Positions 905 through 30,115 of a stretch of 32,000 nucleotides of DNA are shown here, in pieces (positions within the stretch are counted from its first letter, which is position 1; the number at the start of each line of letters is the position of its first letter). The stretch comes from Hyphomicrobiales bacterium (GTDB lineage: Bacteria > Pseudomonadota > Alphaproteobacteria > Rhizobiales > Rhodomicrobiaceae). A program made the position numbers and the translations under genes. The notes below the pieces were generated by a model, which ran no database searches, was not told the origin of the DNA, and saw only the letters and a list, made by a program, of their open reading frames with translations. The stretch is taken from positions 60,478 through 92,477 of the forward strand of contig JAWXCE010000001.1 of NCBI GenBank assembly GCA_034440495.1, given 5' to 3'.

Positions 905-2370
905 GTCGTTACGGATATTGCAGGATTCATTTCGTGCTCCTTGGCTATGATGGCTTCGGAATTCTGACTCTGTTCAGCGTCGGTGTTGACGCCGCAGACG
1001 CTAAACACCACTTTAAGGCCTGGATTATTATCTTCAAGACGGACGTCTCCACCGTGGAGACGCGCGACAGCGGCGACAAGGCTGAGACCGAGGCCGCTGC
1101 CCGGTTTTGAGCGGCTGGCTTCCAGGCGGACGAAACGCTCCAGCGCTTTCCCGCGCTGACCGGGCGCTATCCCCGCGCCATGATCCGATATGGCAATCTC
1201 AACCTTTGGGCCCTGCTGCGCTATGTCAAGAGCTATGCCTCGCGTCTCGCTCGATGCATGAGGCGCGCCGTACTTGATCGCATTGTCGAGAAGGTTTGCG
1301 ATGGCCTGCGCGATGAGTTGGCGTTCGCCGGTGATGGGCATGACAGGCGCGCCCGTCACGGTGATGGACAACCCGTGCGCTTCAGCGACTGGCTCGTAAA
1401 GCTCCGCCGCATCGCGGGCGACCGCGCAGAGATCGAATTCAGCGCCTGAAACGCTGCGCGCTCCAGCCTCCATATGCGCGATATTCAACAGCGCGTCGAA
1501 CGTGCGGATCAGCTCGTCGCCCTCCTCTATCGTGTCGCGCAGGGCTTCTTCATAATGCTGCGCATTGCCGCCTTCGCGCAGCGCGGCCTCCGCCCGGTTA
1601 CGCAGCCGGTTGAGCGGCGTTTTCAAATCGTGAGCGATGTTGTCCGAAACTTCGCGCAAGCCTTGCATCAGGCGCTCGATTCTATCGAACATGCCGTTAA
1701 GATTCGCAGCAAGCCGATCAATTTCGTCGCCCGAACCGTCCAATGCTACGCGGCCAATCATACCAGCCGCCATTATGCCATGGCTTTGCCGGGTCAGATT
1801 TTCGATCCGTTGCAGCAGCCTGCGGCCCACGAACAGGCCAACGCCAACGCCGGTGATAAGCAGCGTGGCAAGCCCCCAAAGGGCCGCCGAACGGATTAAT
1901 CCGGCAAATTCTCGCCGCTCCTCGACATCACGTCCGACAATGAGACGAAAGCCGCCCTGCAAGAGCACGACGCTCACAATAGCCATCCGATCTTCAAAGC
2001 CCCCGCCGCCAGGACGCCGATATGCAAACTCGACCTGGCCGAGCGCATTCCACAATTCCGGACTTACCGTGCGCAAGTTGCCGACCACGCGGCCGGCTTT
2101 TTCGTCGGTGAGAAGGTAAAGGCTATTGCCGGGAGTAGCACTGCGTTCGGCGATGGTTTGCGAAAGACGCTGCAGCCCGCCAACCGCATATTGCTCGGCC
2201 AGACCACGAAGTTCCGCCTCGATCGTGCTGTCGATCTGGCGCGAAACCAAAGTCTGTGCGTTCCAATAGGTGTAGGCGATCACGGCGGCACCGGCGGCTC
2301 CGAAAATCGCGACATAGAGCAGCGAGAGCCGGAAAGCCGTGGTGCGTAAAAGTTTAAGCGACACCGTCAC
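901..2370 (-). CDS. Sensor histidine kinase (two TM segments, HAMP, HisKA, HATPase_c)
   Basis: H-box SDNIAHDLKTPLNRL, N-box LDNAIKY, G-boxes DHGAGI and GSGLGLSLV. N-terminal TM helix plus a second TM before a HAMP-like segment. Overlaps the upstream response regulator by 17 nt. Confidence 0.9.
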   Translation of the reverse strand: MTVSLKLLRTTAFRLSLLYVAIFGAAGAAVIAYTYWNAQTLVSRQIDSTIEAELRGLAEQYAVGGLQRLSQTIAERSATPGNSLYLLTDEKAGRVVGNLRTVSPELWNALGQVEFAYRRPGGGGFEDRMAIVSVVLLQGGFRLIVGRDVEERREFAGLIRSAALWGLATLLITGVGVGLFVGRRLLQRIENLTRQSHGIMAAGMIGRVALDGSGDEIDRLAANLNGMFDRIERLMQGLREVSDNIAHDLKTPLNRLRNRAEAALREGGNAQHYEEALRDTIEEGDELIRTFDALLNIAHMEAGARSVSGAEFDLCAVARDAAELYEPVAEAHGLSITVTGAPVMPITGERQLIAQAIANLLDNAIKYGAPHASSETRGIALDIAQQGPKVEIAISDHGAGIAPGQRGKALERFVRLEASRSKPGSGLGLSLVAAVARLHGGDVRLEDNNPGLKVVFSVCGVNTDAEQSQNSEAIIAKEHEMNPAISVTT

Positions 2371-3034
2371 CGATCATATATCCCGCGCCCCGCACCGTTT
2401 GCAGCAGAGGCGTCTCAAAATTCTTATCGATTTTCGCTCGCAAGCGGGAAATATGTACGTCAATGACATTTGTCTGCGGGTCGAAATGATAATCCCAGAC
2501 ATTTTCGAGAAGCATCGTCCGGGTCACGACCTGACCCGCATGCTTCATCAGGTATTCGAGCAGGCGATATTCGCGAGGTTGAAGCGGTAGCGACTCGCCC
2601 TTGCGCGTGACCTTATGCGTCAGTCGGTCAAGCACAAGATCGCCCACGACATAGCGGGAAGTGGACTCTTCCGGTGACGCTCTGCGGGCTAAAGCTTCAA
2701 CTCGCGCCAACAATTCAGAAAATGCAAAAGGTTTGGCGAGATAGTCGTCGCCGCCAGCCCGCAGTCCCTGCACGCGGTCATCGACTGCTCCCAGAGCGCT
2801 GAGTACAAGCGCGGGCGTCTGAACGCCGGATTTTCTTAGCGCCTGAATAACTGCAAGGCCGTTCTGTTTAGGGAGCATTCGGTCGACGATAAGGACATCA
2901 AATTCGCTGGAGGCCGCCGCGTCAAGACCGGCTTCGCCATCGGAAGCGACTTCGGCAGAGTGGCCGCTTTCCTTCAGCGCCTTTTCGAGATAGGCGGCGG
3001 TTTTGGCGTCATCTTCGATGATCAAAACGCGCAT
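2354..3034 (-). CDS. OmpR-family response regulator (receiver plus winged-helix domain)
   Basis: Receiver motifs MRVLIIEDD and DVLIVDRMLPKQNG, with K in YLAKPF. C-terminal trans_reg_C-like LLEYLMKHAGQVVTRTMLLENVW...VRGAGYMI. Confidence 0.92.
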   Translation of the reverse strand: MRVLIIEDDAKTAAYLEKALKESGHSAEVASDGEAGLDAAASSEFDVLIVDRMLPKQNGLAVIQALRKSGVQTPALVLSALGAVDDRVQGLRAGGDDYLAKPFAFSELLARVEALARRASPEESTSRYVVGDLVLDRLTHKVTRKGESLPLQPREYRLLEYLMKHAGQVVTRTMLLENVWDYHFDPQTNVIDVHISRLRAKIDKNFETPLLQTVRGAGYMIGDGVA

Positions 3035-3057
3035 AATCGATAACCCGGATCACGTCG

Positions 3058-3102
3058 GTAAAAATTGTTAAGCCCCGCCACAATCTGCGCTGCGGCGGGG
3101 CT
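3058..3102 (-). terminator. Rho-independent terminator candidate downstream of degP
   Basis: 9-bp GC-rich stem agccccgcc (3071-3079) / ggcggggct (3094-3102). On the minus strand it is followed by a T-run, the complement of aaaaa at 3060-3064. Confidence 0.5.
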
Positions 3103-3118
3103 AATGTCGAGAGCCAGC

Positions 3119-4723
3119 TTAGTTAGGCTTTTTCTCGTCTTTTTTGTCTTTGCCGTCTGCTTTGCGTTCAGCCAGCGAAAGCGCCACGAAACGTGTCTGG
3201 TCTTTGGACTTCACCTGCATAAAGACGGCGCGTTTGCCTTTGTCTTTCGCAGAGCGAAGGCCTGACGCAATATCCTCTGCGGAGGATACTGCCTCACCGC
3301 CGATTTCCAGAATCACATCGCCTTTTTTCAAGCCTTTCTCTGCGGCTTCCGACGCAGGATCGATCTCCGTGATCGCCACGCCTTTAGAACCTGCGCCAGG
3401 CACATCACTCGCTGGAGCAAGTGCAAGGCCCAGATCGTTAAGCTCTTCCGCTTCCTTTTCCTGCGGCTCAAGTGCGGCAAGCTTATCCTGACTTGGGAAT
3501 GTGCCGAGCTTAATGTTCAGGTCACGCTTTTTGCCGTCGCGATAAACGACAACCTTGGTGTCTGCGTCCGGAAGCATAGAAGCAACGGTCCGGGCAAGAT
3601 CGCGCGAATCGTTGATCGACTTTCCGTTCACTTCGACAATCACGTCGCCGACGTTGATTTCCGATTTCGCAGCTGGACCGTCTTCAAGAATTTTCGTGAC
3701 GAGAGCGCCTTTGGCTTCTTTCAGGTCGAGGCTTTCCGCAATGTCCTCACTCACGTTCTGAATCGTAACACCAAGCCAGCCGCGGCTAACTTTGCCGCCT
3801 TTTTGAAGCGCATCGACAACATCACGTGCGAGGTCAGACGGGACAGCGAAAGCAATGCCGACGTTGCCGCCGCTTGGACTAAATATCGCGGTGTTGACGC
3901 CGACAACCTGGCCTTTCAGGTTTACGGACGGACCGCCAGAATTGCCGCGATTAACAGCCGCGTCGATCTGCAGATAGTCATAAGGCCCGGAGCCAATATC
4001 GCGGCTCATCGCCGAGACGATACCGGCGGTGACTGTGCCGCCAAGGCCGAACGGGTTGCCGACCGCCAGCACCCAATCGCCAACGCGAGGGCTGTCGCTC
4101 GCGAAGTCGAGATACTTATCGAACTGCTTGCCGCCTTTAACTTTCAACAGTGCAATGTCAGTGCGCGTGTCCGTGCCTACGAGTTCTGCGTCGAACTTCT
4201 CGTCGTTCTCAAATGTCACGCTGATTTCATCGGCTTTATCGATGACGTGGTTATTGGTGACGATATAGCCATCGCGAGAAATCACAAAGCCCGAGCCTTG
4301 CGCCCGCGCTGGCCGACCTTCTTCCGGTTGTCCGGGCTGGCCTGGAGCTCCAGGACCTCTTTTGAATTGTTCAAAGAATTCTCGGAATGGATGGCCTGGG
4401 GGCAGATCGTCGAAGTTGAAATTTTCAGGCCCCCCGCGACCACCCGGACCGCCCGTGCCGCGCATCGCTGAGCCATTTTTCGTGTAAACGCTGACAACCG
4501 CAGGCCGTACTTTTTCCGCCAGATCGGCGAAACTTAATGGAGCGTTGCCAAAACCTTGCGCAATCGCCGGTTCTACAGTGAAAAGTTTTTGTGGGATTGG
4601 GCTAACGAGCGCAGCGCCGAGCAGGCCTGCGCCAACGATCATCACAAATGTTTTTGCGCGTGCCATATCTATGCCTGCGCTTTTTTCGGCCAGTGACGAT
4701 TTTTTTGTTTCAAACTCAGGCAT
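3119..4723 (-). CDS. degP: Periplasmic serine endoprotease DegP/HtrA (trypsin-like domain plus two PDZ domains)
   Basis: Catalytic motifs TNNHV (His), DIALLKV (Asp) and GNSGGPS (Ser), followed by two PDZ-like segments. The signal-like MARAKTFVMIVGAGLLGAALV suggests the real start may be the internal Met 19 codons downstream of 4723. Confidence 0.92.
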   Translation of the reverse strand: MPEFETKKSSLAEKSAGIDMARAKTFVMIVGAGLLGAALVSPIPQKLFTVEPAIAQGFGNAPLSFADLAEKVRPAVVSVYTKNGSAMRGTGGPGGRGGPENFNFDDLPPGHPFREFFEQFKRGPGAPGQPGQPEEGRPARAQGSGFVISRDGYIVTNNHVIDKADEISVTFENDEKFDAELVGTDTRTDIALLKVKGGKQFDKYLDFASDSPRVGDWVLAVGNPFGLGGTVTAGIVSAMSRDIGSGPYDYLQIDAAVNRGNSGGPSVNLKGQVVGVNTAIFSPSGGNVGIAFAVPSDLARDVVDALQKGGKVSRGWLGVTIQNVSEDIAESLDLKEAKGALVTKILEDGPAAKSEINVGDVIVEVNGKSINDSRDLARTVASMLPDADTKVVVYRDGKKRDLNIKLGTFPSQDKLAALEPQEKEAEELNDLGLALAPASDVPGAGSKGVAITEIDPASEAAEKGLKKGDVILEIGGEAVSSAEDIASGLRSAKDKGKRAVFMQVKSKDQTRFVALSLAERKADGKDKKDEKKPN

Positions 4724-4842
4724 TGGTTATTCACCTCATTTCAATTTGGCTACATAGTGAATAAGGGATATAGTGACTGAAGACTTACGACGCCGTTTCC
4801 ACAGCATTAAATTTCGGTAATGCCAGATAAAACTTTGCCCTC

Positions 4843-6057
4843 GTGGGGTCGATTTTGACAAAGATACAAAAATTGGCGGGCGCCCGACTTAAGAAATGGC
4901 AAATTTTTGCCAGCTTGTTTTTCTTTAATTTCGCCGCATGCTCCATTATCGCAATAGCGGGCGGCGCTACGCCAGGCGCAGAACGCTACCTTTTGCACCC
5001 GACCGCGAGATCTCTACCGGTGGCCGTCTTTGGCGATGACGGGCGACGCGAACTGCCAGAAAAATACAGCGGCCTTGAAGGTAAGATCGGGATGATTTAT
5101 GAACCGATAAGTCAGACGCTATGCACGGCATTTTGCGTTGCGCCAGACGTGGTGGCCACGGCAGCTCACTGTCTTTTCCAGGCGAAAGCCGCAAAAATCC
5201 CCGCTATTTCATCGCTTAGCTTCCGGCTGGACTACGGCAAGGTCTCGACATCCACGGGCCTTGCCGGCAGCCGGAAAGGCGTGGAGAAAAACTTCGTCGC
5301 TGTCGGCACCACCAAGTTTAATCAGGAGCCTCCGCTCTCGGCGCCTCTGGACTGGGCGCTTGCCCGCCTCGAAAGGCCCATATGCCGTTTTGGCGTGCTG
5401 GATGTTGTTCCCAAAACGGTGCCCGAGCTGGCACAGGCGACAACGGAAAAGCGGATTTTTCAGGTCGCTTATCACTGGGATTATCAGCACTGGAAGCTGG
5501 CATATTCGGGCGCGTGCACTATCAGCCGTAGCTTCAGCCTGCAGTGGCGCGCGATCCAGCAGCATTTTTCAGACTCGGAAGATCTGGTTCTACACGATTG
5601 CGATACAGGCGGCGCCTCATCCGGATCACCCATTCTAATGGACACGCCGCTTGGCCCGGTCGCAGTGGCGATTAATGTAGGCACCTACACGCGCACCAGG
5701 CTGTTCCTGCGTCAAGGCCGCGTTGTAAAACGCCTGAACCCGGACGTGATTGCAAACACGGGCGTAAACGCGCGGGCTTTCAAGCACATAATAGCGGAAC
5801 TGGGCACAGCCCAGATACTGGAAAGCCCGGATGAATTGTCACAATTGCAGTTGGAGCTTAGGGCGCGCGCTTTATATTCGGGTAAAGTAGATGGCATTCT
5901 GGGGCGAAACACACGAAGCGCCATTCGGCAGTTTGAGGTCAGCAACGGACTTACTGCAACAGGACTTCCAACACAGAAGGTTCTCGATCAAATTTCGCAA
6001 AATCGGGAACGGCCAGCAGTAGATTATAGCACTGTGCGGGGGAAAGCGCCCAACTAG
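4843..6057 (+). CDS. Secreted trypsin-like (S1) serine protease with a C-terminal peptidoglycan-binding (PG_binding_1-like) domain
   Basis: VATAAHC (His) and DTGGASSGSPI (Ser) motifs. C-terminal LRARALYSGKVDGILGRNTRSAIRQFEVSNGLTATG matches the PG_binding_1 pattern. Hydrophobic N-terminus. GTG start is uncertain. Its stop overlaps the ccmH stop (CTAG). Confidence 0.75.
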   Translation: MGSILTKIQKLAGARLKKWQIFASLFFFNFAACSIIAIAGGATPGAERYLLHPTARSLPVAVFGDDGRRELPEKYSGLEGKIGMIYEPISQTLCTAFCVAPDVVATAAHCLFQAKAAKIPAISSLSFRLDYGKVSTSTGLAGSRKGVEKNFVAVGTTKFNQEPPLSAPLDWALARLERPICRFGVLDVVPKTVPELAQATTEKRIFQVAYHWDYQHWKLAYSGACTISRSFSLQWRAIQQHFSDSEDLVLHDCDTGGASSGSPILMDTPLGPVAVAINVGTYTRTRLFLRQGRVVKRLNPDVIANTGVNARAFKHIIAELGTAQILESPDELSQLQLELRARALYSGKVDGILGRNTRSAIRQFEVSNGLTATGLPTQKVLDQISQNRERPAVDYSTVRGKAPN

Positions 6058-13447: not shown

Positions 13448-13993
13448 TTAAACTTTCGACTTGGGGTAAGCGTTTTTAGCGCGCTGCAAGGCCATTGCTT
13501 CGGCCATGGTCGCCATTAGCCGACGCGACCAGCCGAGGCCGAATGCAGAGAACAGACGGCTGAGGAGGCCGTAATGCCGCATACGCAGCGCCATGAATTC
13601 AAGCAACAACGCGCGCCCGTCGGCGGTCTTCACCGCAGCAATGGTGCGTTCGCCAATCGCCCCGTCAACGCGAACGCGAGCCGCTTGCTGCAACCATTTG
13701 CGCGCTCGCCCGACGCCCTGATTCACAGCGCAATCGAACACGGCGAGGTCGATGCCGGGCGGCAGCCGGTCGCACGCCGCCAAATTCCAGTAATCTTTCC
13801 GGTAAATCGCCGCAGCCTCGGACGACTTGAGCGCGCGCACCTCGGATTTGGTGACGGAGCGTTTGCGAAATCGCTCCAGCGTGCGTTTCGTTATGCCGAG
13901 ATTGGTCGCGCCGCCGGGATCGAGCGGATGGTCGCTGTAGCCGCCCTCAAACTTGAGTACGTGCTTGAGCGCGGCGGAGAAATTTTCTTTCAA
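13448..13993 (-). CDS. GH108-family muramidase-like protein with a PG_binding_3-like C-terminal domain
   Basis: KHVLKFEGGYSDHPLDPGGATNLGIT plus YRKDYW and DCAVNQGVGRA motifs are typical of Glyco_hydro_108/PG_binding_3. I place the start at TTG 13993, with GGAGG at 14003..13999, giving MKENFSAALKHVL. The track ORF extends to 14095 across a hairpin. Confidence 0.8.
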   Translation of the reverse strand: MKENFSAALKHVLKFEGGYSDHPLDPGGATNLGITKRTLERFRKRSVTKSEVRALKSSEAAAIYRKDYWNLAACDRLPPGIDLAVFDCAVNQGVGRARKWLQQAARVRVDGAIGERTIAAVKTADGRALLLEFMALRMRHYGLLSRLFSAFGLGWSRRLMATMAEAMALQRAKNAYPKSKV

Positions 13994-14004
13994 ACTCGCC
14001 TCCA

Positions 14005-14028
14005 ATAAAAATGCCGCCCGGAGGCGGC
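14005..14028 (-). terminator. Terminator- or attenuator-like hairpin between the small membrane protein gene and the GH108 gene
   Basis: GCCGCC-cgga-GGCGGC at 14013-14028. On the minus strand it is followed by ATTTTTATT, which runs into the GGAGG of the GH108 gene. Confidence 0.4.
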
Positions 14029-14052
14029 GTGGCTGATAAAAATCTGTTGGAG

Positions 14053-14244
14053 TCAGCGCTCGCGCCGCTGCTGTCGTTCTCGCACGAACAGCCAAAGCCG
14101 TCCCGCGCCGAGCACAAGGCCGACACCCAGCGAGGCCGTTGTTAAAAGCTGGTTGACCTCATTCAACCAAGGCGCCCAGGCAGGCGCCGAGATGAGGCTA
14201 GTGGCAATGGCGCCATCGCCCATACCCGAGTCATTGTCTGTCAT
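14053..14244 (-). CDS. Small membrane protein with a basic C-terminal tail (function unknown)
   Basis: From the internal ATG at 14244 (GAAAGG upstream): MTDNDSGMGDGAIATSLISAPAWAPWL...LLTTASLGVGLVLGAGRLWLFV, then RERQQRRER. Lies directly downstream of g15. Confidence 0.45.
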   Translation of the reverse strand: MTDNDSGMGDGAIATSLISAPAWAPWLNEVNQLLTTASLGVGLVLGAGRLWLFVRERQQRRER

Positions 14245-20648: not shown

Positions 20649-20681
20649 TTTCATCTCCGTCGCGCGGCCCCGCGCTTTTTT

Positions 20682-20941
20682 GTTGCTGTTGCGCATTCGC
20701 GCAACGGGTTTCCGGCTAAGCCGGGCGCGCGGTCGCGCTGTTCGCCCTGCGGGCGCTTAGGGCCTCGGTTGTGGCTAGAGGTTGCGCTAGCCGCGCGAGA
20801 CGGCGCGGGCGAGAGGTTGTTGCCGTTGCGCATTCGCGCAACGGGTTTCCCGCTAGGCCCGGCGCGCGGTCCCGCTATCCGCCCTTCGGGCGCTTAAAGG
20901 CATCAGAGATTGCGCTGGCCACGGGAGACGGCGCGGGCGAG
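20682..20941. repeat. Imperfect tandem duplication (two units of about 130 bp) covering the g11 3' end and the g11-g12 spacer
   Basis: Unit A is about 20682-20813 and unit B about 20819-20941. Each carries the perfect hairpin GTTGCGC-attc-GCGCAAC (20688-20705 and 20825-20842). Each also carries a copy of the g11 terminal sequence: 20903-20941 is the real one, and 20775-20813 is a degenerate relic. Confidence 0.8.
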
Positions 20942-21504: not shown

Positions 21505-21593
21505 GTCATCCTCGAGCGCGGTGAGGCGGAGACCCGAGGATACATTCCTAAGGCGTAAAGTCTGGATGGCCGGGTCAAGCCCGGCGATGATGA
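21505..21593. repeat. REP/MITE-like palindromic element (family A) in the g10.1-g11 junction
   Basis: gtcatcctcgag...cccgaggatac hairpin plus the module tctggatggccgggtcaagcccggcgatgatg. That module is shared with the elements at 25773-25857 and 28684-28747. Confidence 0.7.
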
Positions 21594-24487: not shown

Positions 24488-25714
24488 TTAAGACGCGGCA
24501 AACTTCAAAAGTTTTATCGCGTCGAAGTCCTGCACGCCGCCGCCGACACGCTTTGTCGTGTAAAACAGCACGTAAGGCTTGGCGGAGTACGGGTCGCGCA
24601 GGATGCGCAGGCCCATGCGATCCACCACGAGGTAGCCCCGGCGGAAATCGCCGAAAGCGAGCGCGTAGGCGTCCGCCGCGATATCCGGCATTTCCTCCAC
24701 CTCGACCACGGGGAAGCCCATGAGCGTGGCGGGTTGGCCGATGGCGGCGGGCGGCGACCATAGATATTCGCCCGTCGTCGCTTTGAACTTGCGGATCGCG
24801 GCCTGCGTCTTGCGGTTCAAGACGAACGTGCCGTTCTGACGAAACGGGCCTTTCAGCGCATAGATGAGGTCGAGCAGGATATCCGACGGGTTGGAGGCCG
24901 CGAAAGCGCCTGCCGCGCCTGTCGCCAGGTAGCCGATATTGCCCCACGACCAGCTCGCATTGGCGACTTTTGTGTAGTTCATGAAGCCTTTCGGCTGGCC
25001 TGTGCCGTTGCCGTTCACGAGCGCCGCGCTTTCCTGCTCGGCGAAGGAGGTTTCGATTTCGTCGGCGAGCCACTGGTCGATGTCCACAACAGAATCATCA
25101 AGCAGTGTCTGCGTTGCCGCTGGCATGGCGTAAAGTTCCATGGCGGGGAATGACAGTTCCGCCAGCGTGGGCGCCGTGGTCTGGGTGCGTGCGGCCGTCT
25201 CCGCCACCCACCCTGCCGCCGTGCCGACGGTCGAGAACGCTTTTTTGTAGGTGCCCGCAGAAACCTGCCGCACCGACGCGATGCCCCGTATTGGCGACAG
25301 CGTGGAGAGGCGGCGCAACACCTCCGACTCGGTCACGGACGGAGCAAGATAGCCGCCATCCGGGCCCGAGCCAGCCGACAGCGCCTTCAGCTCCAAAGCT
25401 TTCAGGCCCGTGAATTCGCCGGTGCGCACGTAGCTGTCGAACGCCGACTTGTGCTCGCACGCCGCCACGCTTTTTATCTCGCCGCCACGCGCAGGGCGCA
25501 ACGCTTTAAGCGACAGGGTTTCCACCGCCTTGTTCAGCCGGTCCACCTTCTCGGCGGTGACGGCGTCGGTAGACATGCGGCGCTCGATCTGGTCGAGCCG
25601 TTCGTCATTGGCCTCACGGAAGGCGTGCAGCGTGCGCATGAAATCGTCGTAGTCGTCATGGCGGTTTGCGCCCGCCGCCTTGTTTTCCAGGGCCGGGTAG
25701 AAATGTTCGGTCAT
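24488..25714 (-). CDS. GTA g5-type major capsid protein, HK97 family
   Basis: 408 aa. N-terminal coiled delta-like region (ERLDQIERRMS...KVDRLNKAVETL), then the HK97-fold body (GGYLAPSVTESEVLRRLSTLSPIRGIASV...LWSPPAAIGQPATLMGFPV). GAGGA RBS. Confidence 0.95.
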   Translation of the reverse strand: MTEHFYPALENKAAGANRHDDYDDFMRTLHAFREANDERLDQIERRMSTDAVTAEKVDRLNKAVETLSLKALRPARGGEIKSVAACEHKSAFDSYVRTGEFTGLKALELKALSAGSGPDGGYLAPSVTESEVLRRLSTLSPIRGIASVRQVSAGTYKKAFSTVGTAAGWVAETAARTQTTAPTLAELSFPAMELYAMPAATQTLLDDSVVDIDQWLADEIETSFAEQESAALVNGNGTGQPKGFMNYTKVANASWSWGNIGYLATGAAGAFAASNPSDILLDLIYALKGPFRQNGTFVLNRKTQAAIRKFKATTGEYLWSPPAAIGQPATLMGFPVVEVEEMPDIAADAYALAFGDFRRGYLVVDRMGLRILRDPYSAKPYVLFYTTKRVGGGVQDFDAIKLLKFAAS

Positions 25715-25729: not shown

Positions 25730-26317
25730 TTAAGGGCGTAGGCAAATGGCGCGGTTTATGCCATCTCGCTTTGTCATGACCGCGCTTGATCCGGTCATCC
25801 AGGAAGGCTGCGCGGTTTTTGTTTTCTGAATGGCCGGGTCAAGCCCGGCGATGACGGGGTTGGGGGTGGCTATGACCGAGGGGCGTTGATGGGCTACACG
25901 TGCGCCCGCCAGCATTGGGAATGTCACGATGGAGATTTCCCAGAGGTCGATTTCGGTAAGGAGCCGGCCGCCGCGAGCGTCGCGCTGCGATTTGACCGCG
26001 CGGAAGCCGATGGACAGGCCGTCGATGGCGCCGTCGCGCAGAAGACCGCGCAGATCGTTCGATTTCGCCACGCCCTCCGACAGCCAGCCACGCACGTAAA
26101 GCCCGCGCGCATCCTCGCGGATGTCCTCCCACACGCCGACGGGCTGCGCCGGATCGTGCTGGAAAAGCATGCGGATGGCGCAGGCGGGGCGGCGGGCGAG
26201 CGAGGCGCGAAAAGCGCCAGGCGCCACCATGTCTCGCGTCTGATCGGGCACGCCGAACAGGCTTGCATAGCCCGTGATGCGCTGTTTTGCACAGGTGAAG
26301 GTTTTTGCGTCGTGCAT
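25730..26317 (-). CDS. GTA g4-type prohead protease, HK97 family, with a repeat-derived C-terminal tail
   Basis: ITGYASLFGVPDQTRDMVAPGAFRASL, MLFQHDPAQPVGVWEDIREDARGLYVRG, IDGLSIGFR and EISIVTFPMLAGARV. The last 45 codons or so run through the family A repeat element. Confidence 0.9.
   Translation of the reverse strand: MHDAKTFTCAKQRITGYASLFGVPDQTRDMVAPGAFRASLARRPACAIRMLFQHDPAQPVGVWEDIREDARGLYVRGWLSEGVAKSNDLRGLLRDGAIDGLSIGFRAVKSQRDARGGRLLTEIDLWEISIVTFPMLAGARVAHQRPSVIATPNPVIAGLDPAIQKTKTAQPSWMTGSSAVMTKRDGINRAICLRP
25773..25857. repeat. REP/MITE-like palindromic element (family A) inside the 3' end of the g4 ORF
   Basis: gtcatgaccgcgcttgatccggtcatccagga...tggccgggtcaagcccggcgatgacgg. Both hairpin modules are shared with the element at 28684-28747. 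Confidence 0.75.
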
Positions 26318-26363
26318 GGGGGATGTTCTATGGGTTGGAGATTATAAAAAAGGTAAGCGTCTG

Positions 26364-26663
26364 TTGCGTAATATTTTTGTTGCAGCTTTAGTCTTGATGG
26401 CCGCGTCTCCGGCGAACGCCGATGGCATGGCCTGCACGGCGAAAACCGGCGCCGCGAAAATCCTTAAATCACCGAAGCAGGCGGACGCGCATCCGCTCTG
26501 GCCCACCGCCGCTCACGGAGGCTCATCCCTTACCATCGTCGATGGCGAAGAAGCAAAAGGCGACGGCGCCGTTCCCTACATTTCCGGTTCGCTGGTCAGC
26601 CCTCGCGACGGCGCCATCCCTGGCAAAGTCTTCATTATCGCCAGCGAGTGGGAATGCTATTGA
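26364..26663 (+). CDS. Small secreted protein of unknown function, opposite strand to the GTA genes
   Basis: Preferred TTG start at 26364 gives the signal peptide (M)RNIFVAALVLMAASPANA|DG. The mature protein of about 80 aa is bracketed by Cys residues (ACTAK...SEWECY). The start is uncertain, since the track ORF begins at 26274 inside g4. GC content looks host-like. Confidence 0.5.
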   Translation: MRNIFVAALVLMAASPANADGMACTAKTGAAKILKSPKQADAHPLWPTAAHGGSSLTIVDGEEAKGDGAVPYISGSLVSPRDGAIPGKVFIIASEWECY

Positions 26664-26857
26664 AGACCGCTGTTATTTAGCAAGCGGCGCCAAACGGTTC
26701 CCCCCCGCGCTTACATGGGTAGCACGGAGTACGCCTTACATCACGATGTAACGATTGAACCCCGACGCTGTAAAGGCTTGCGAGCTTGTTAAATGCTGTA
26801 TCTTTCTGGGAAAATCTATGTACTTATTTATAGTTAATGTGATGTTGTGAGGTCATC

Positions 26858-27532
26858 ATGCGTTATCTATTGCTAGTAATTTTGATACTTCAGCCAACAC
26901 AGGCTCTCTCAGCCCACTGCTATAAAATTATTCGCAAGACGCCTGTGTATGGTTATAACTCGCGGCATGTTCCAACTCGACGACCGTATGCTCAATGCAT
27001 TTTTTTGCGCAAAGGAAGTGAAATATATGTAAAGCGTTCCACAGATAAAATGCTTTTTCTAACGTATCACACCAAAGCTATGTACGAACTTCCATATTAT
27101 AGAAGTTTATTCGTCTACGCAGACGATGTTACTCCTTGCAGACAAATAGATGCAACAGTCGCGCCGTCAAAACCCCAAATTGAACACACTCCGATATCTC
27201 CAATTAAATCAGATTTTGCGCCTCCAGAAATACCAACCGACGGCACTGTAATAAAATGCGATGATCTGGGTCGTATCGAGAATAGCGATAAAAGGTTTGT
27301 ATGCTTGAAGGCTCAGAAGGACGTAAAGCACTTCGATGCTTTTGGTAAGCCATACGATGGCCCTATAACCAAAGGTAACTGCATATTGGCTTTTAAAGCC
27401 ACCTGGGAAAATACAAGAAGTGTAATCAAGTTTTTCAGGGGCAGCCCCGCGAAACTTTTTGAGGCTGATAAGAAGGAAGACAATAAGGACAATTTCAAAC
27501 TCTGTTTTACTGAAGATTATTTTCAGCGTTAA
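26858..27532 (+). CDS. Secreted Cys-rich two-module protein of unknown function in an AT-rich patch
   Basis: GAGG lies 6 nt upstream of the ATG. Signal peptide MRYLLLVILILQPTQALSA|HC. Two Cys-bracketed modules are joined by a Pro-rich linker (APSKPQIEHTPISPIKSDFAPPEIPTDG). The 3' end overlaps the portal 3' end by 26 nt, convergently. Confidence 0.65.
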   Translation: MRYLLLVILILQPTQALSAHCYKIIRKTPVYGYNSRHVPTRRPYAQCIFLRKGSEIYVKRSTDKMLFLTYHTKAMYELPYYRSLFVYADDVTPCRQIDATVAPSKPQIEHTPISPIKSDFAPPEIPTDGTVIKCDDLGRIENSDKRFVCLKAQKDVKHFDAFGKPYDGPITKGNCILAFKATWENTRSVIKFFRGSPAKLFEADKKEDNKDNFKLCFTEDYFQR

Positions 27533-28664
27533 CCAGTCCAGCGGCAGCGCGTTTTTCGTCTACAGTGAGGAAATCGGCGCGCTGTAGCATATCCCACAGC
27601 GCGGCGCGTTCGCCGCTGAGCGCGTCGACTCTGTCCATGGACAAATTGAGTTCGACCGCGCCGAATGCGGGTGCGAGCCAGGCTGTGAGCGATTGAAGCG
27701 TGCGGGCGACAAGCGGTAGAACGGTCTGGCGCCAGAACACCCGGTTCGCTTCCTGATAATTAGAATACGTGTTGTCGCCGGGGATGCCGAGCAGCATCGG
27801 CGGCACTCCGAGCGCCAGTGCGATTTCCCGGGCGGCGGCGTTTTTCGCCTCGATGAAATCCATGTCCTTCGGGCTCATCGACATGGTTTTCCAATCGAGC
27901 CCGCCCTCCAGCAGCATCGGCCGCCCGGCGTTGATGGCGCCCTGGTAGTTCGTCTCCAGCTCGGATTTGAGACGCGAGAACTGCGCCTCCGTCATGTGCC
28001 CGCCGCTCGTATACACCAGCGCCCCAGACGGCCTCGCGGAGTTATCAAGCAGCGCTTTGTTCCACCCGCTCGCCGCGTTGTGCACATCTATGGCGACCGC
28101 CGCCGCCTCGATTGGCGACATGCCGTAATAGTCGTTGGACGGGTTAAACAGCGCCATGTGCAGAATGGGCCGCAAGCCGCCGTTCAACTGTTGAAACCGG
28201 ACAGTGCGGCCATTCGCGGAGTAATCGTAAGCCTCGGGCCAGCCGTCTGCGCCGGGCACGACCGTCATCCGGTCGGGACGCAGGACGTAAAGCTCGCGCG
28301 GCGCGCCCTCCAAGCTCACCGCTTCGAGATAGGCGTTGCCGGAGATGAGCAAGTAGCCGTACCAGTCCTCCATCAAATCCGGGCCGCAGGTGATAGGGTT
28401 CGGCGTTGCCAGCAGAGACAAAAGCGGATGCTCCGTGAGTTCCCGTCCACTCTCGAACAGACGGATAGGCACAGAGGCGGCGGCTTCAGCGATCATGCGG
28501 ACGGAGCGGTAAACGATGGGGTTCTTGGCGAACCCCTCACGGGCGAAAGCTGAGTAATCGCGCGGACTCCAAACTGCGCGCCCCGTGTCATGCAGGGCAA
28601 TGACAGGCCCTGCCGCGCTCGCTTTCGTTTCCACAGGCGCGGCTTTGCGTTTCCAGAGTGGCAT
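27507..28664 (-). CDS. GTA g3-type portal protein, HK97 family
   Basis: 385 aa from ATG 28664, with AGGAGG 6 nt upstream: MPLWKRKAAPVE...IVYRSVRMIAEAAASVP...GNAYLE...PMLLGIPGDNTYSNYQEANRVFWRQTVLP. The track's 15-aa N-terminal extension is translated repeat DNA. Confidence 0.93.
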   Translation of the reverse strand: MPLWKRKAAPVETKASAAGPVIALHDTGRAVWSPRDYSAFAREGFAKNPIVYRSVRMIAEAAASVPIRLFESGRELTEHPLLSLLATPNPITCGPDLMEDWYGYLLISGNAYLEAVSLEGAPRELYVLRPDRMTVVPGADGWPEAYDYSANGRTVRFQQLNGGLRPILHMALFNPSNDYYGMSPIEAAAVAIDVHNAASGWNKALLDNSARPSGALVYTSGGHMTEAQFSRLKSELETNYQGAINAGRPMLLEGGLDWKTMSMSPKDMDFIEAKNAAAREIALALGVPPMLLGIPGDNTYSNYQEANRVFWRQTVLPLVARTLQSLTAWLAPAFGAVELNLSMDRVDALSGERAALWDMLQRADFLTVDEKRAAAGLVNAENNLQ

Positions 28665-28683
28665 GGCGACCTCCTTGTGGGCC

Positions 28684-28747
28684 GTCATGCCCGGACTTGA
28701 TCCGGGCATCCAGGAGTCTGGATCGCCGGGTCAAGCCCGACGATGAC
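28684..28747. repeat. REP/MITE-like palindromic element (family A, compact copy) in the g2-g3 junction
   Basis: gtcATGCCCGGActtgaTCCGGGCATccaggagtctggatcGCCGGGtcaaGCCCGaCgatgac: two hairpins flanked by gtcat/atgac ends. Confidence 0.8.
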
Positions 28748-28753
28748 GATTGA

Positions 28754-30115
28754 TTAAAAACTGCGGATGCGCGGGTCGCGGCGTTCGTTCAGCATCAGTT
28801 CGGTCAGCGCCCAGACGAGCGCGTCGAGCCGATCTGGACTGCGGCCGCCGAAAAGGCCATCCGGCCCAAAGTCGCACATTTGATCCTCAAGCTCTTGCCA
28901 CGCGCCGACATGCGCGACGCGGCCCTGTTCGTAAAGCGCGGCGATGGGTTCGGCCCGCACATGCTTGCCGCGCGTCGCCCGCACCTGTTTGACGGGCGCG
29001 GCGGTGGCGATTTGCCGAAAAATTTCCCCCACCAGATCGCCGCCTTGGTTGACCTCAGCAACGAGGCAATCTGCCTGCCAATTTTCGTAAAGGCGTAGCG
29101 CGGCGCGCGCCCACTCCAGCGGCTGGCGGCCCTGACAGGTGGCGTCGGCGAGCACATAGGCGCAGCCATCCGCGCAGACGCCCGCCGCCACGATGCCGCA
29201 AGCGTCGGATTTCGCATGGCTCGTCACCGGCGGATCGACCGCAACCACGATGCGCGTCAGCGGCGGCGCGGCGTTTACGCGATGCCGGTCGAATATCTCG
29301 CGGCGCCACAGCGCGTCGGCGCGATCCTCGATGAGTTCGCCATCTAACTCCTGACGGCCGAGGCGCGACCCGCCATATCGCTCCGTCACCATTTCGAGGA
29401 ACGACGGCGCGAGATGCAGCGCGTTTGCCGAGGTTTTCGCGCGGCTGATGGCGACACGCGGGTCGGCCAGCAGCTTTTTCAGCAGCGGCGTCGCGCGCGG
29501 CGTTGTGGTGAAAACCTGCCGGGGCCGCTCGCCGAGACGCAGGCCGAATTGCAGCATGTCCCAGGTCTCCTGCGAATGGCGCCATTTGCCCAATTCATCG
29601 CCCCAGGCTGCGGCGAATTGCGGGCCACGTAAACTGTCGGGGTCTTCCGATGAGAAAATCTGCGCAACCGCGCCGTTTGGCCAGGTTAGTTCGCGCTTCG
29701 ATGATCTGTACTCCGGCCGTTCGTGCCGAGGGTGAATGGCGAGCAGCCCGGACGGCCCCTCCACCATAACGCTGCGCGCATCCGCCAGCGTTTCGCCAAT
29801 CAGCGCGATACGCTCGGCCGACCGCGAGGCAAATGGCGCTAATCCTAGCGCCTGCCCACGCACCCATTCAGCCCCTGCCCGCGTTTTCCCCGCGCCGCGC
29901 CCGCCCAGCAGCAGCCATGTCGCCCAGTCGCCGCCACCCTGCGCGCGCGCGGGCGGCAATTGATCGTCCCGCGCCCAAAGCTGCCAGTCGTGCAGCACAA
30001 ATGCGAGTTCATACGATGACAGTGATTGCAGCAGCTCATTGGCGGCCGTCTCCGCCACGCAGTTTGTCAAGGCGAGCCGCAAGCTGGCGGCGGAAGATGT
30101 CCGCATCGGCGTCAA
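28754..30115 (-). CDS. GTA g2-type terminase large subunit
   Basis: HDWQLWARDDQLPP...WLLLGGRGAGKTRAGAEWV (Walker A), then a nuclease-domain region with VAVDPPVTSHAKSDACGIV. The start is uncertain because the ORF overlaps the g1-like gene by 80 nt. Confidence 0.93.
   Translation of the reverse strand: MTPMRTSSAASLRLALTNCVAETAANELLQSLSSYELAFVLHDWQLWARDDQLPPARAQGGGDWATWLLLGGRGAGKTRAGAEWVRGQALGLAPFASRSAERIALIGETLADARSVMVEGPSGLLAIHPRHERPEYRSSKRELTWPNGAVAQIFSSEDPDSLRGPQFAAAWGDELGKWRHSQETWDMLQFGLRLGERPRQVFTTTPRATPLLKKLLADPRVAISRAKTSANALHLAPSFLEMVTERYGGSRLGRQELDGELIEDRADALWRREIFDRHRVNAAPPLTRIVVAVDPPVTSHAKSDACGIVAAGVCADGCAYVLADATCQGRQPLEWARAALRLYENWQADCLVAEVNQGGDLVGEIFRQIATAAPVKQVRATRGKHVRAEPIAALYEQGRVAHVGAWQELEDQMCDFGPDGLFGGRSPDRLDALVWALTELMLNERRDPRIRSF

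Follow-up and report, generated by a model that had tools for sequence, protein, structure and literature searches.

Two genes for predicted secreted proteins lie antisense between the portal and protease genes of a gene transfer agent cluster in a Hyphomicrobiales bacterium

The window analysed in this study is a stretch of 32,000 nt from a Hyphomicrobiales bacterium of the Rhodomicrobiaceae (assembly GCA_034440495.1, contig JAWXCE010000001.1, positions 60,478 to 92,477 of the forward strand). It harbours, on the minus strand, a complete head-tail gene cluster of a gene transfer agent (GTA) of the RcGTA type, collinear from TerL through the portal, protease and capsid genes to g15. The portal gene (g3) and the prohead protease gene (g4) of this cluster are separated by a gap of 1189 nt (26318-27506). 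No minus-strand gene was found in the gap, where the minus-strand open reading frames (ORFs) were all of 61 aa or less. The plus strand of the gap carries two ORFs, named here orfA and orfB, which are the subject of this report. The features of the locus are as follows.

25730-26317, minus strand: prohead protease (g4), 195 aa; Pfam Peptidase_S78, E=4e-31
26364 (TTG)-26663, plus strand: orfA, 99 aa, with a 19-aa signal peptide and a beta-rich mature domain of ~80 aa with two conserved Cys
26664-26857, plus strand: orfA-orfB spacer, G+C 0.55 in its first ~100 nt and 0.39 in its last ~100 nt
26858-27532, plus strand: orfB, 224 aa, with a signal peptide of ~18-19 aa, predicted secreted
27507-27575, minus strand: 3' end of the portal gene with depressed G+C at third codon positions (GC3); the last 8 codons (VNAENNLQ) and the stop codon overlap orfB
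27507-28709, minus strand: portal (g3); Pfam Phage_portal, E=1.5e-88, profile positions 1-320 of 321

Both ORFs start with a Sec-type signal peptide, judged by eye, in which a short basic n-region and a hydrophobic core precede an AXA-type cleavage site. The signal peptide of orfA is MRNIFVAALVLMAASPANA, with cleavage before DG (...SPANA/DG), and that of orfB is MRYLLLVILILQPTQALS, with cleavage before A (...QALS/A). The two products are predicted to be exported, so that any activity would be expected in the periplasm or outside the cell. A first-pass annotation of the window had described a gap of about 1.2 kb between g4 and g3 with no minus-strand gene and with two plus-strand ORFs carrying signal peptides, and both observations were borne out. 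Contigs from four assembly sources (Logan, JGI, ENA and NCBI) were used as an independent check on the assembly. The window DNA was matched at 100% identity by contigs from several metagenome samples, of microbial mats, several of these contigs crossing both junctions, and an assembly chimera was therefore rejected.

The composition of orfB sets it apart from the genes around it. Its G+C content is 0.409 (0.47, 0.38 and 0.38 at the first, second and third codon positions, GC1, GC2 and GC3) and its GC3 is 0.378, whereas GC3 is 0.75 in the portal gene, 0.75 in the protease gene, 0.80 in the capsid gene and 0.75 in TerL. The neighbouring GTA genes have a G+C content of 62-66%, and the mean of the rest of the window is 60%. 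In 120-nt windows over 26760-27540 the G+C content was 0.33-0.47, compared with 0.60-0.66 in the portal gene. Nowhere else in the 32 kb is the G+C content as low: only 0.1% of 675-nt windows were as low as orfB, and all of them were located here. The earlier suggestion that the second gene is foreign by its composition is supported.

The search for relatives of orfB gave itself only, both in a word-indexed set of 5.8e9 proteins and in a full HMMER scan of 1.84e9 representatives. No match was obtained in Pfam, PHROGs, PADLOC, NCBIfam, PDB sequences, IMG/VR contigs or PLSDB plasmids, and in metagenome contigs the gene was always found in this same context. For comparison, 80 related GTA clusters (L001-L080) were collected by a portal-protein scan, with one genome per species. 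Neither orfB at the orthologous junction, in the closest clusters as in the others, nor any similarity of the orfB or spacer DNA to these 80 loci or to the rest of the window was detected. In L002, a cluster from a Hyphomicrobiales metagenome-assembled genome (MAG) with a portal identity of 86% and a capsid identity of 92%, orfB is lacking and only 15 nt separate the stop codon of orfA from that of the portal gene. Its composition and distribution identify orfB as foreign DNA that was inserted in this species only. The event is most simply read as a recent gain, and not as a loss, because orfB has no relatives, is 15-25 points lower in G+C than its surroundings and is absent from the nearest relative.

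An insertion sequence, a miniature inverted-repeat transposable element or another transposon was rejected as the source of the insert, since no terminal repeats, target-site duplication or transposase domain were found. Inverted or direct repeats flanking the insert were limited to 10-17-mers at chance level. With no terminal repeats, target duplication, transposase or tRNA at the site, illegitimate recombination is the probable mechanism of insertion. A non-coding RNA in the gap was also rejected, as only sub-threshold Rfam noise and no tRNA were obtained there, and no Rfam family reached a convincing score in the orfA-orfB spacer.

It might be argued that orfB is not a gene, and that the inserted DNA is non-coding foreign or decayed DNA, such as a mobile-element remnant or a regulatory spacer, in which the ORF is accidental or recently dead. 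The lack of a homolog in any database searched would agree with this, as would the lack of a confident fold (the single-sequence AlphaFold2 model had a mean predicted local distance difference test score, pLDDT, of 31 and was unusable). No sigma-70-like promoter or intrinsic terminator was recognised in 26150-27750 by a crude consensus scan, from which alphaproteobacterial promoters differ. There was also no polymorphism for a test of selection: all contigs were identical, exact-protein look-ups returned identical DNA only, and no population variant without orfB was found. However, the stop-free run of 229 codons, in DNA of 41% G+C, exceeds the maximum of 199 observed in 2000 composition-matched Markov shuffles, and the ATG is preceded at a spacing of 5 nt by the Shine-Dalgarno sequence GAGG (26849-26852). 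The canonical signal peptide is followed by a Cys-rich mature part (7 Cys) with two domain-like halves linked by a Pro-rich stretch. The order GC1>GC2>=GC3 is the pattern of real genes in AT-rich genomes, and independent gene callers called orfB in every contig. ORF length, the GAGG, the signal peptide and the codon-position gradient together suggest that orfB is coding, and a non-coding insert appears unlikely.

A perfect palindrome, TTACATC-AC-GATGTAA (7-bp arms; 26736-26751), was noted in the spacer ~107 nt upstream of the orfB start, with a second CTTACAT 27 nt upstream of it. The palindrome could be an operator or may be due to chance, about 0.1 such palindromes being expected per 200 nt.

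The first gene, orfA, is host-like in composition (G+C 0.593, GC3 0.65). Its start lies 46 nt from that of the protease gene in divergent orientation; alternative starts are an ATG at 26316 and an ATG at 26397, the latter picked by the gene callers. An ortholog was found in L002 at the same antisense site between portal and protease and in the same orientation, with 62% amino-acid identity over the full length, signal peptide and N-terminal MRNIF included. Differences between the two sequences by codon position numbered 25, 20 and 53, and the ratio of nonsynonymous to synonymous substitution rates (dN/dS) was 0.18, similar to the 0.20 of the adjacent protease gene and the 0.10 of the portal gene. 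By these sequence measures, orfA is a real gene under purifying selection; it is considered a lineage feature because of its host-like G+C content, its antisense conservation in L002 and its low dN/dS. The protein search, the profile search and the metagenome contigs gave no member of the family beyond this species and L002. The first-pass annotation had regarded the two genes as one accessory insertion, and not as a feature conserved in the lineage. This view stands for orfB, which is absent from all 80 related clusters, and does not stand for orfA, which is kept in L002.

In the AlphaFold2 model (pLDDT 70), built on a 2-sequence alignment, the orfA product folds as a small all-beta domain, for which the best Foldseek matches in the PDB were SH3b domains of NlpC/P60 peptidases and phage endolysins (TM ~0.45-0.5, E 0.1-3). 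The modelled domain resembles the SH3b-like cell-wall-binding domains in being small and all-beta, and these domains were repeatedly among the best matches; there was, however, no match at the sequence level, the E-values were weak and the pLDDT was only 70. The SH3b-like fold is therefore a lead only and not an assignment.

To place the gap in its wider setting, the distances between adjacent head genes, measured between conserved anchor residues, were compared in the related clusters. A junction was called expanded when this distance was >500 nt above the median.

Portal-protease junction: median 502 nt, range 117-3381 nt, expanded in 14 of 70 loci, 1259 nt in the window
Protease-capsid junction: median 191 nt, range 120-3492 nt, expanded in 12 of 63 loci, 244 nt in the window
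TerL-portal junction: median 164 nt, range 60-3603 nt, expanded in 7 of 69 loci, 132 nt in the window

The contents of the portal-protease junction varied widely among the relatives. In L001, the closest cluster by portal identity (88%), both orfA and orfB are lacking, and 2140-5066 of that locus, between portal and protease, encodes on the same strand a type III polyketide synthase, a methyltransferase and an FAD-dependent oxidoreductase. An antisense LysE exporter gene occupies the junction in L063 (7705-8316), a gene for a DUF2798 protein that of L004 (Rhodomicrobium; 1231-1779), and an antisense gene for a DUF333 protein with a signal peptide that of L042 (a Xanthobacter MAG; 4435-4722). 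The junction of L006 contains a 755-nt stretch of 30-56% G+C (1100-1850) with an antisense signal-peptide ORF. Portal-protease gaps of only 20-72 nt were observed in the close relatives L007, L009, L012, L019 and L037, which indicates that nothing is required at this site. The junction is a recurrent insertion site with cargo that is unrelated from case to case. The three-gene set of L001 resembles an alkylresorcinol-type operon, that is, a secondary-metabolite operon within a GTA head module. Expansions of the protease-capsid junction reach 3.5 kb, mainly in Methyloceanibacter-like MAGs, and those of the TerL-portal junction reach 3.6 kb.

More than half of the loci (42 of 80, among them Bosea, Xanthobacter and Stappia) carry at this junction a conserved same-strand gene family of ~66 aa with the motif GDLAHLxLFLWA...ANRRFDxFVRELxRFN, which presumably corresponds to g3.5, the small ORF between g3 and g4 of RcGTA. 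A profile hidden Markov model (HMM) built from 39 members found no member of this family in L001-L019 or in the window, searched in all six frames, and a hidden minus-strand g3.5 was accordingly rejected. A different small membrane protein was seen in the same slot of 7 other loci, the three Methyloligella loci included.

These data bear on a second explanation, in which orfA and/or orfB would be lineage-specific accessory factors of the GTA, replacing the missing g3.5 or serving release, recipient capability or exclusion at the envelope, with an antisense orientation that would make their expression inverse to GTA induction. The two genes do occupy the slot that holds the g3.5-like gene in more than half of the clusters and is without it in this clade; orfA is under apparent purifying selection at exactly this position, its model has weak matches to an SH3b-like, cell-wall-binding fold, and antisense genes for secreted proteins are found at the junction in other lineages too. 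However, neither gene is related in sequence to the g3.5-like family, the members of which are encoded on the same strand as the GTA genes and not, like orfA and orfB, opposite to the operon and with signal peptides. The closest cluster by portal has neither gene and carries the polyketide synthase operon instead, and the five closest loci without a g3.5-like gene have the short junctions given above. The junction cargo is functionally heterogeneous, and the fold matches of orfA have E-values above 0.1. On balance, an accessory role seems improbable for either gene. The suggestions of the first-pass annotation on envelope effects, exclusion and receptor masking are speculative.

The compositional break on the right-hand side of the insert falls inside the portal ORF, as the first-pass annotation had proposed. 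The orfB and portal genes overlap convergently by 26 nt (27507-27532), and the GC3 of the portal gene is 0.25 in its last 8 codons and 0.35 in its last 20, compared with 0.75 for the whole gene. The only 12-codon windows of the gene with five or fewer G/C-ending codons are in these final ~20 codons, and the insertion junction would lie somewhere within 27507-27575. The Pfam portal domain is complete and ends at residue 390 of 400. Portal orthologs are conserved up to ...EKRAAAG[F/L/Y], after which there is a tail of ~3-27 residues that differs in sequence in almost every lineage. The tail in the window, (L)VNAENNLQ, is within the range of the orthologs, and its AENNLQ resembles the ADQNLE(PLSEPAL) of L002. 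The inserted AT-rich DNA supplies the portal stop codon and probably the last few codons. At most ~7 residues of non-conserved tail would have been trimmed, an effect that is probably trivial for function. The proposal that the insertion replaced the native portal terminus is thus retained for the stop codon and perhaps a few codons; a meaningful rewrite of the portal protein does not agree with the complete domain and the hypervariable tail.

The portal 3' end has also to be considered in relation to a third explanation, in which a lower-GC relative with orfB beside its own portal gene was the donor in a homologous replacement and its portal 3' end was transferred as well, which would explain why A/T-ending codons (AT3) are enriched ~20 codons into the portal gene, ~12 of these codons seemingly being in conserved sequence. 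The drop in GC3 does begin near codon 379, within the conserved FLTVDEKRAAAG motif, and among 13 conserved codons at the portal end (27532-27575) 6 are A/T-ending in the window against 0-1 in L001, L002 and L004; but this excess is weak (P ~0.08, binomial with p(AT3)=0.25), the same 6/13 are A/T-ending in L005, which has an AT-rich spacer without orfB and so suggests a local effect of such spacers, and no orfB-bearing donor or other copy of orfB was found in any collection searched, all of which makes this route very unlikely. The excess may reflect a local composition gradient beside AT-rich inserts.

Taken together, it is likely that a permissive g3-g4 slot passively captured first the older orfA and then the recent, foreign orfB, and that both are moron-like passengers and not part of the GTA machinery. 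In a first step, in an ancestor shared by this species and L002, orfA would have settled in antisense orientation between the portal and protease genes, and would have been retained since by purifying selection. In a second step, in this species only, ~0.85 kb of foreign AT-rich DNA with orfB would have been introduced by illegitimate recombination, exactly where the convergent orfA and portal genes meet at their stop codons. Only the tail of the portal protein, which is not conserved, would thereby have been clipped or replaced, and a new stop codon supplied. The insert would have brought the Shine-Dalgarno sequence of orfB with it. Like the morons of phages, orfA and orfB may be independently acquired, outward-acting cargo; secretion and any phenotype of their products are predictions.

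Morons are reportedly extra genes that, in lambdoid and other prophages, are inserted between neighbouring structural genes (the work of Hendrix and colleagues). They are usually co-oriented with the structural genes, and many encode secreted proteins. As in the morons, orfB lies between genes that are adjacent in a close relative, namely the convergent orfA and portal genes of L002, and the orfA-orfB pair lies between genes that are 20-72 nt apart in five relatives. The composition of orfB is also distinct from that of its neighbours, whereas that of orfA is not, and the predicted secreted product of orfB appears unrelated to particle assembly. The likeness is incomplete: the host element here is a domesticated GTA and not a prophage, and orfB is antisense to the structural operon, with no promoter or terminator recognised in the crude consensus scan.

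Several points weigh against passive capture of the two genes. The absence of a homolog, a confident structure or polymorphism for orfB means that its coding status is argued from ORF statistics and sequence signals. None of the features that might account for its arrival (flanking repeats, a target-site duplication, a transposase or a tRNA) was found at the gap. Independent transcription of orfA and orfB is unproven, the consensus scan having given neither a promoter nor a terminator. Lastly, the presence of several independent antisense genes for secreted proteins at the junction (orfA, orfB and those of L006 and L042) might point to a role connected with the GTA and not to pure hitch-hiking.

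The orientation of orfA and orfB may have consequences for the GTA. The head-tail cluster of RcGTA is transcribed as a single operon. Because the two genes face the other way, polymerase that proceeds from g1-g3 into g4-g15 has to cross ~1.2 kb that is antisense to both. Mutual interference between expression of the passengers and expression of the GTA late genes would be expected, and the portal and orfB mRNAs would have complementary 3' ends. A more far-reaching proposal would make the g3-g4 junction of Hyphomicrobiales GTA clusters a dedicated antisense cargo slot for secreted-protein genes (orfA, orfB, and those of L002, L006 and the DUF333 gene of L042), inversely coupled to GTA induction. 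Were this true, read-through of the operon would silence the slot genes in the few producer cells while the non-producers expressed them, resulting in a built-in switch between producers and recipients that would act on properties of the envelope, for example recipient capability, exclusion or protection from lysis. We regard this proposal as highly improbable, and passive capture by a permissive slot as the preferred reading.

The remainder of the cluster is that expected of a GTA. Further features are as follows.

24488-25714, minus strand: capsid; Pfam Phage_capsid
28754-30115, minus strand: TerL; Terminase_6N and Terminase_6C are among the Pfam matches listed for the cluster

Downstream of the capsid gene, the adaptor, head-closure, tail-completion, tail-tube and tail-assembly-chaperone genes follow as usual, and the other Pfam matches in the cluster were Phage_connect_1, Phage_HCP, Tail_completion_gp17, Phage_tail_2, TAC_11 and TAC_6. 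The g15 homolog is of 1302 aa and has the domains GTA_TIM (E=2e-143), Phage-tail_3 and Rcc01698_C. Housekeeping genes flank the cluster: ccmF/ccmH, DegP and a two-component system lie at one end, and a PBP1A-type gene lies at the opposite end. Within the 32 kb examined, none of the called genes or Pfam-scanned ORFs gave a match to an integrase. The collinear GTA genes, the GTA_TIM and Rcc01698_C domains and the housekeeping flanks make the earlier label of a GTA head module a sound one. The cluster is RcGTA-like as known here from its genes, particle production and DNA packaging being predicted. The GTA genes look functional, with intact ORFs and low dN/dS in the comparison with L002 (portal 0.10, protease 0.20).

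Other features of the cluster and its flank were observed that do not concern the gap. A 35-nt repeat resembling repetitive extragenic palindromic (REP) elements, with the hairpin core GCCGGGTCAAGCCCGGC, is present in three copies within the cluster (21559-21593, 25823-25857 and 28715-28749). The copy at 25823-25857 sits within the 3' end of the protease ORF and extends it, the protease having 162 aa in L002 but 195 aa in the window. The TerL-portal spacer is filled by the copy at 28715, which explains the strings 'PGSSPGMTA' and 'GLDPGIQ' in ORF translations. At 20680-20941, two tail-region ORFs are separated by a tandem duplication of ~137 nt, with 80-nt copies at 20680 and 20817 (90% identical) and 37-nt copies at 20777 and 20905. 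An endolysin-like gene (GH108 and PG_binding_3; 13448-14095) follows the g15 homolog on the same strand after ~240 nt, at the end of the cluster. Apart from the gap, the G+C content of 675-nt windows falls below 0.50 only at ~4450-5200, in a divergent region between a DegP-like gene (3119-4723, minus strand) and a trypsin-like/PG_binding_1 gene (4843-6057, plus strand).

The first-pass annotation knew of no described accessory cassette inside a GTA head module. However, extra genes in head-tail clusters are in the literature (PMC9765227), and the same junction is expanded in 14 of 70 relatives. Extra non-RcGTA genes of unknown function inside alphaproteobacterial GTA head-tail clusters are mentioned in a passage of that paper, citing Shakya et al. 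(2017) and Kogay et al. (2019). The cases stressed in that passage were families present in at least 10 genomes, one of which proved to be a head completion protein (PMC9765227). In the search tool GTA-Hunter, neighbouring GTA genes may be as far as 5 kb apart (PMC6821227). Like the published extra ORFs, orfA and orfB have no RcGTA homology and no known function and lie between head-tail genes; they differ in that orfA is found in two species and orfB in one, and in that both are antisense. The case is real but fairly ordinary; it would not surprise a specialist and reveals no new mechanism by itself.

The value of the locus is as a clean, dated example of a domesticated phage-derived cluster that still takes foreign passenger genes into its head module while keeping its own genes. 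Across Hyphomicrobiales, the portal-protease, protease-capsid and TerL-portal junctions are recurrent landing sites. The junction survey is a useful by-product. Such landing sites bear on GTA annotation, in which gap tolerances and 'incomplete' calls depend on them, and on ideas of operon integrity and read-through in GTA expression. The junctions also constitute a small reservoir of predicted secreted proteins with few or no relatives.

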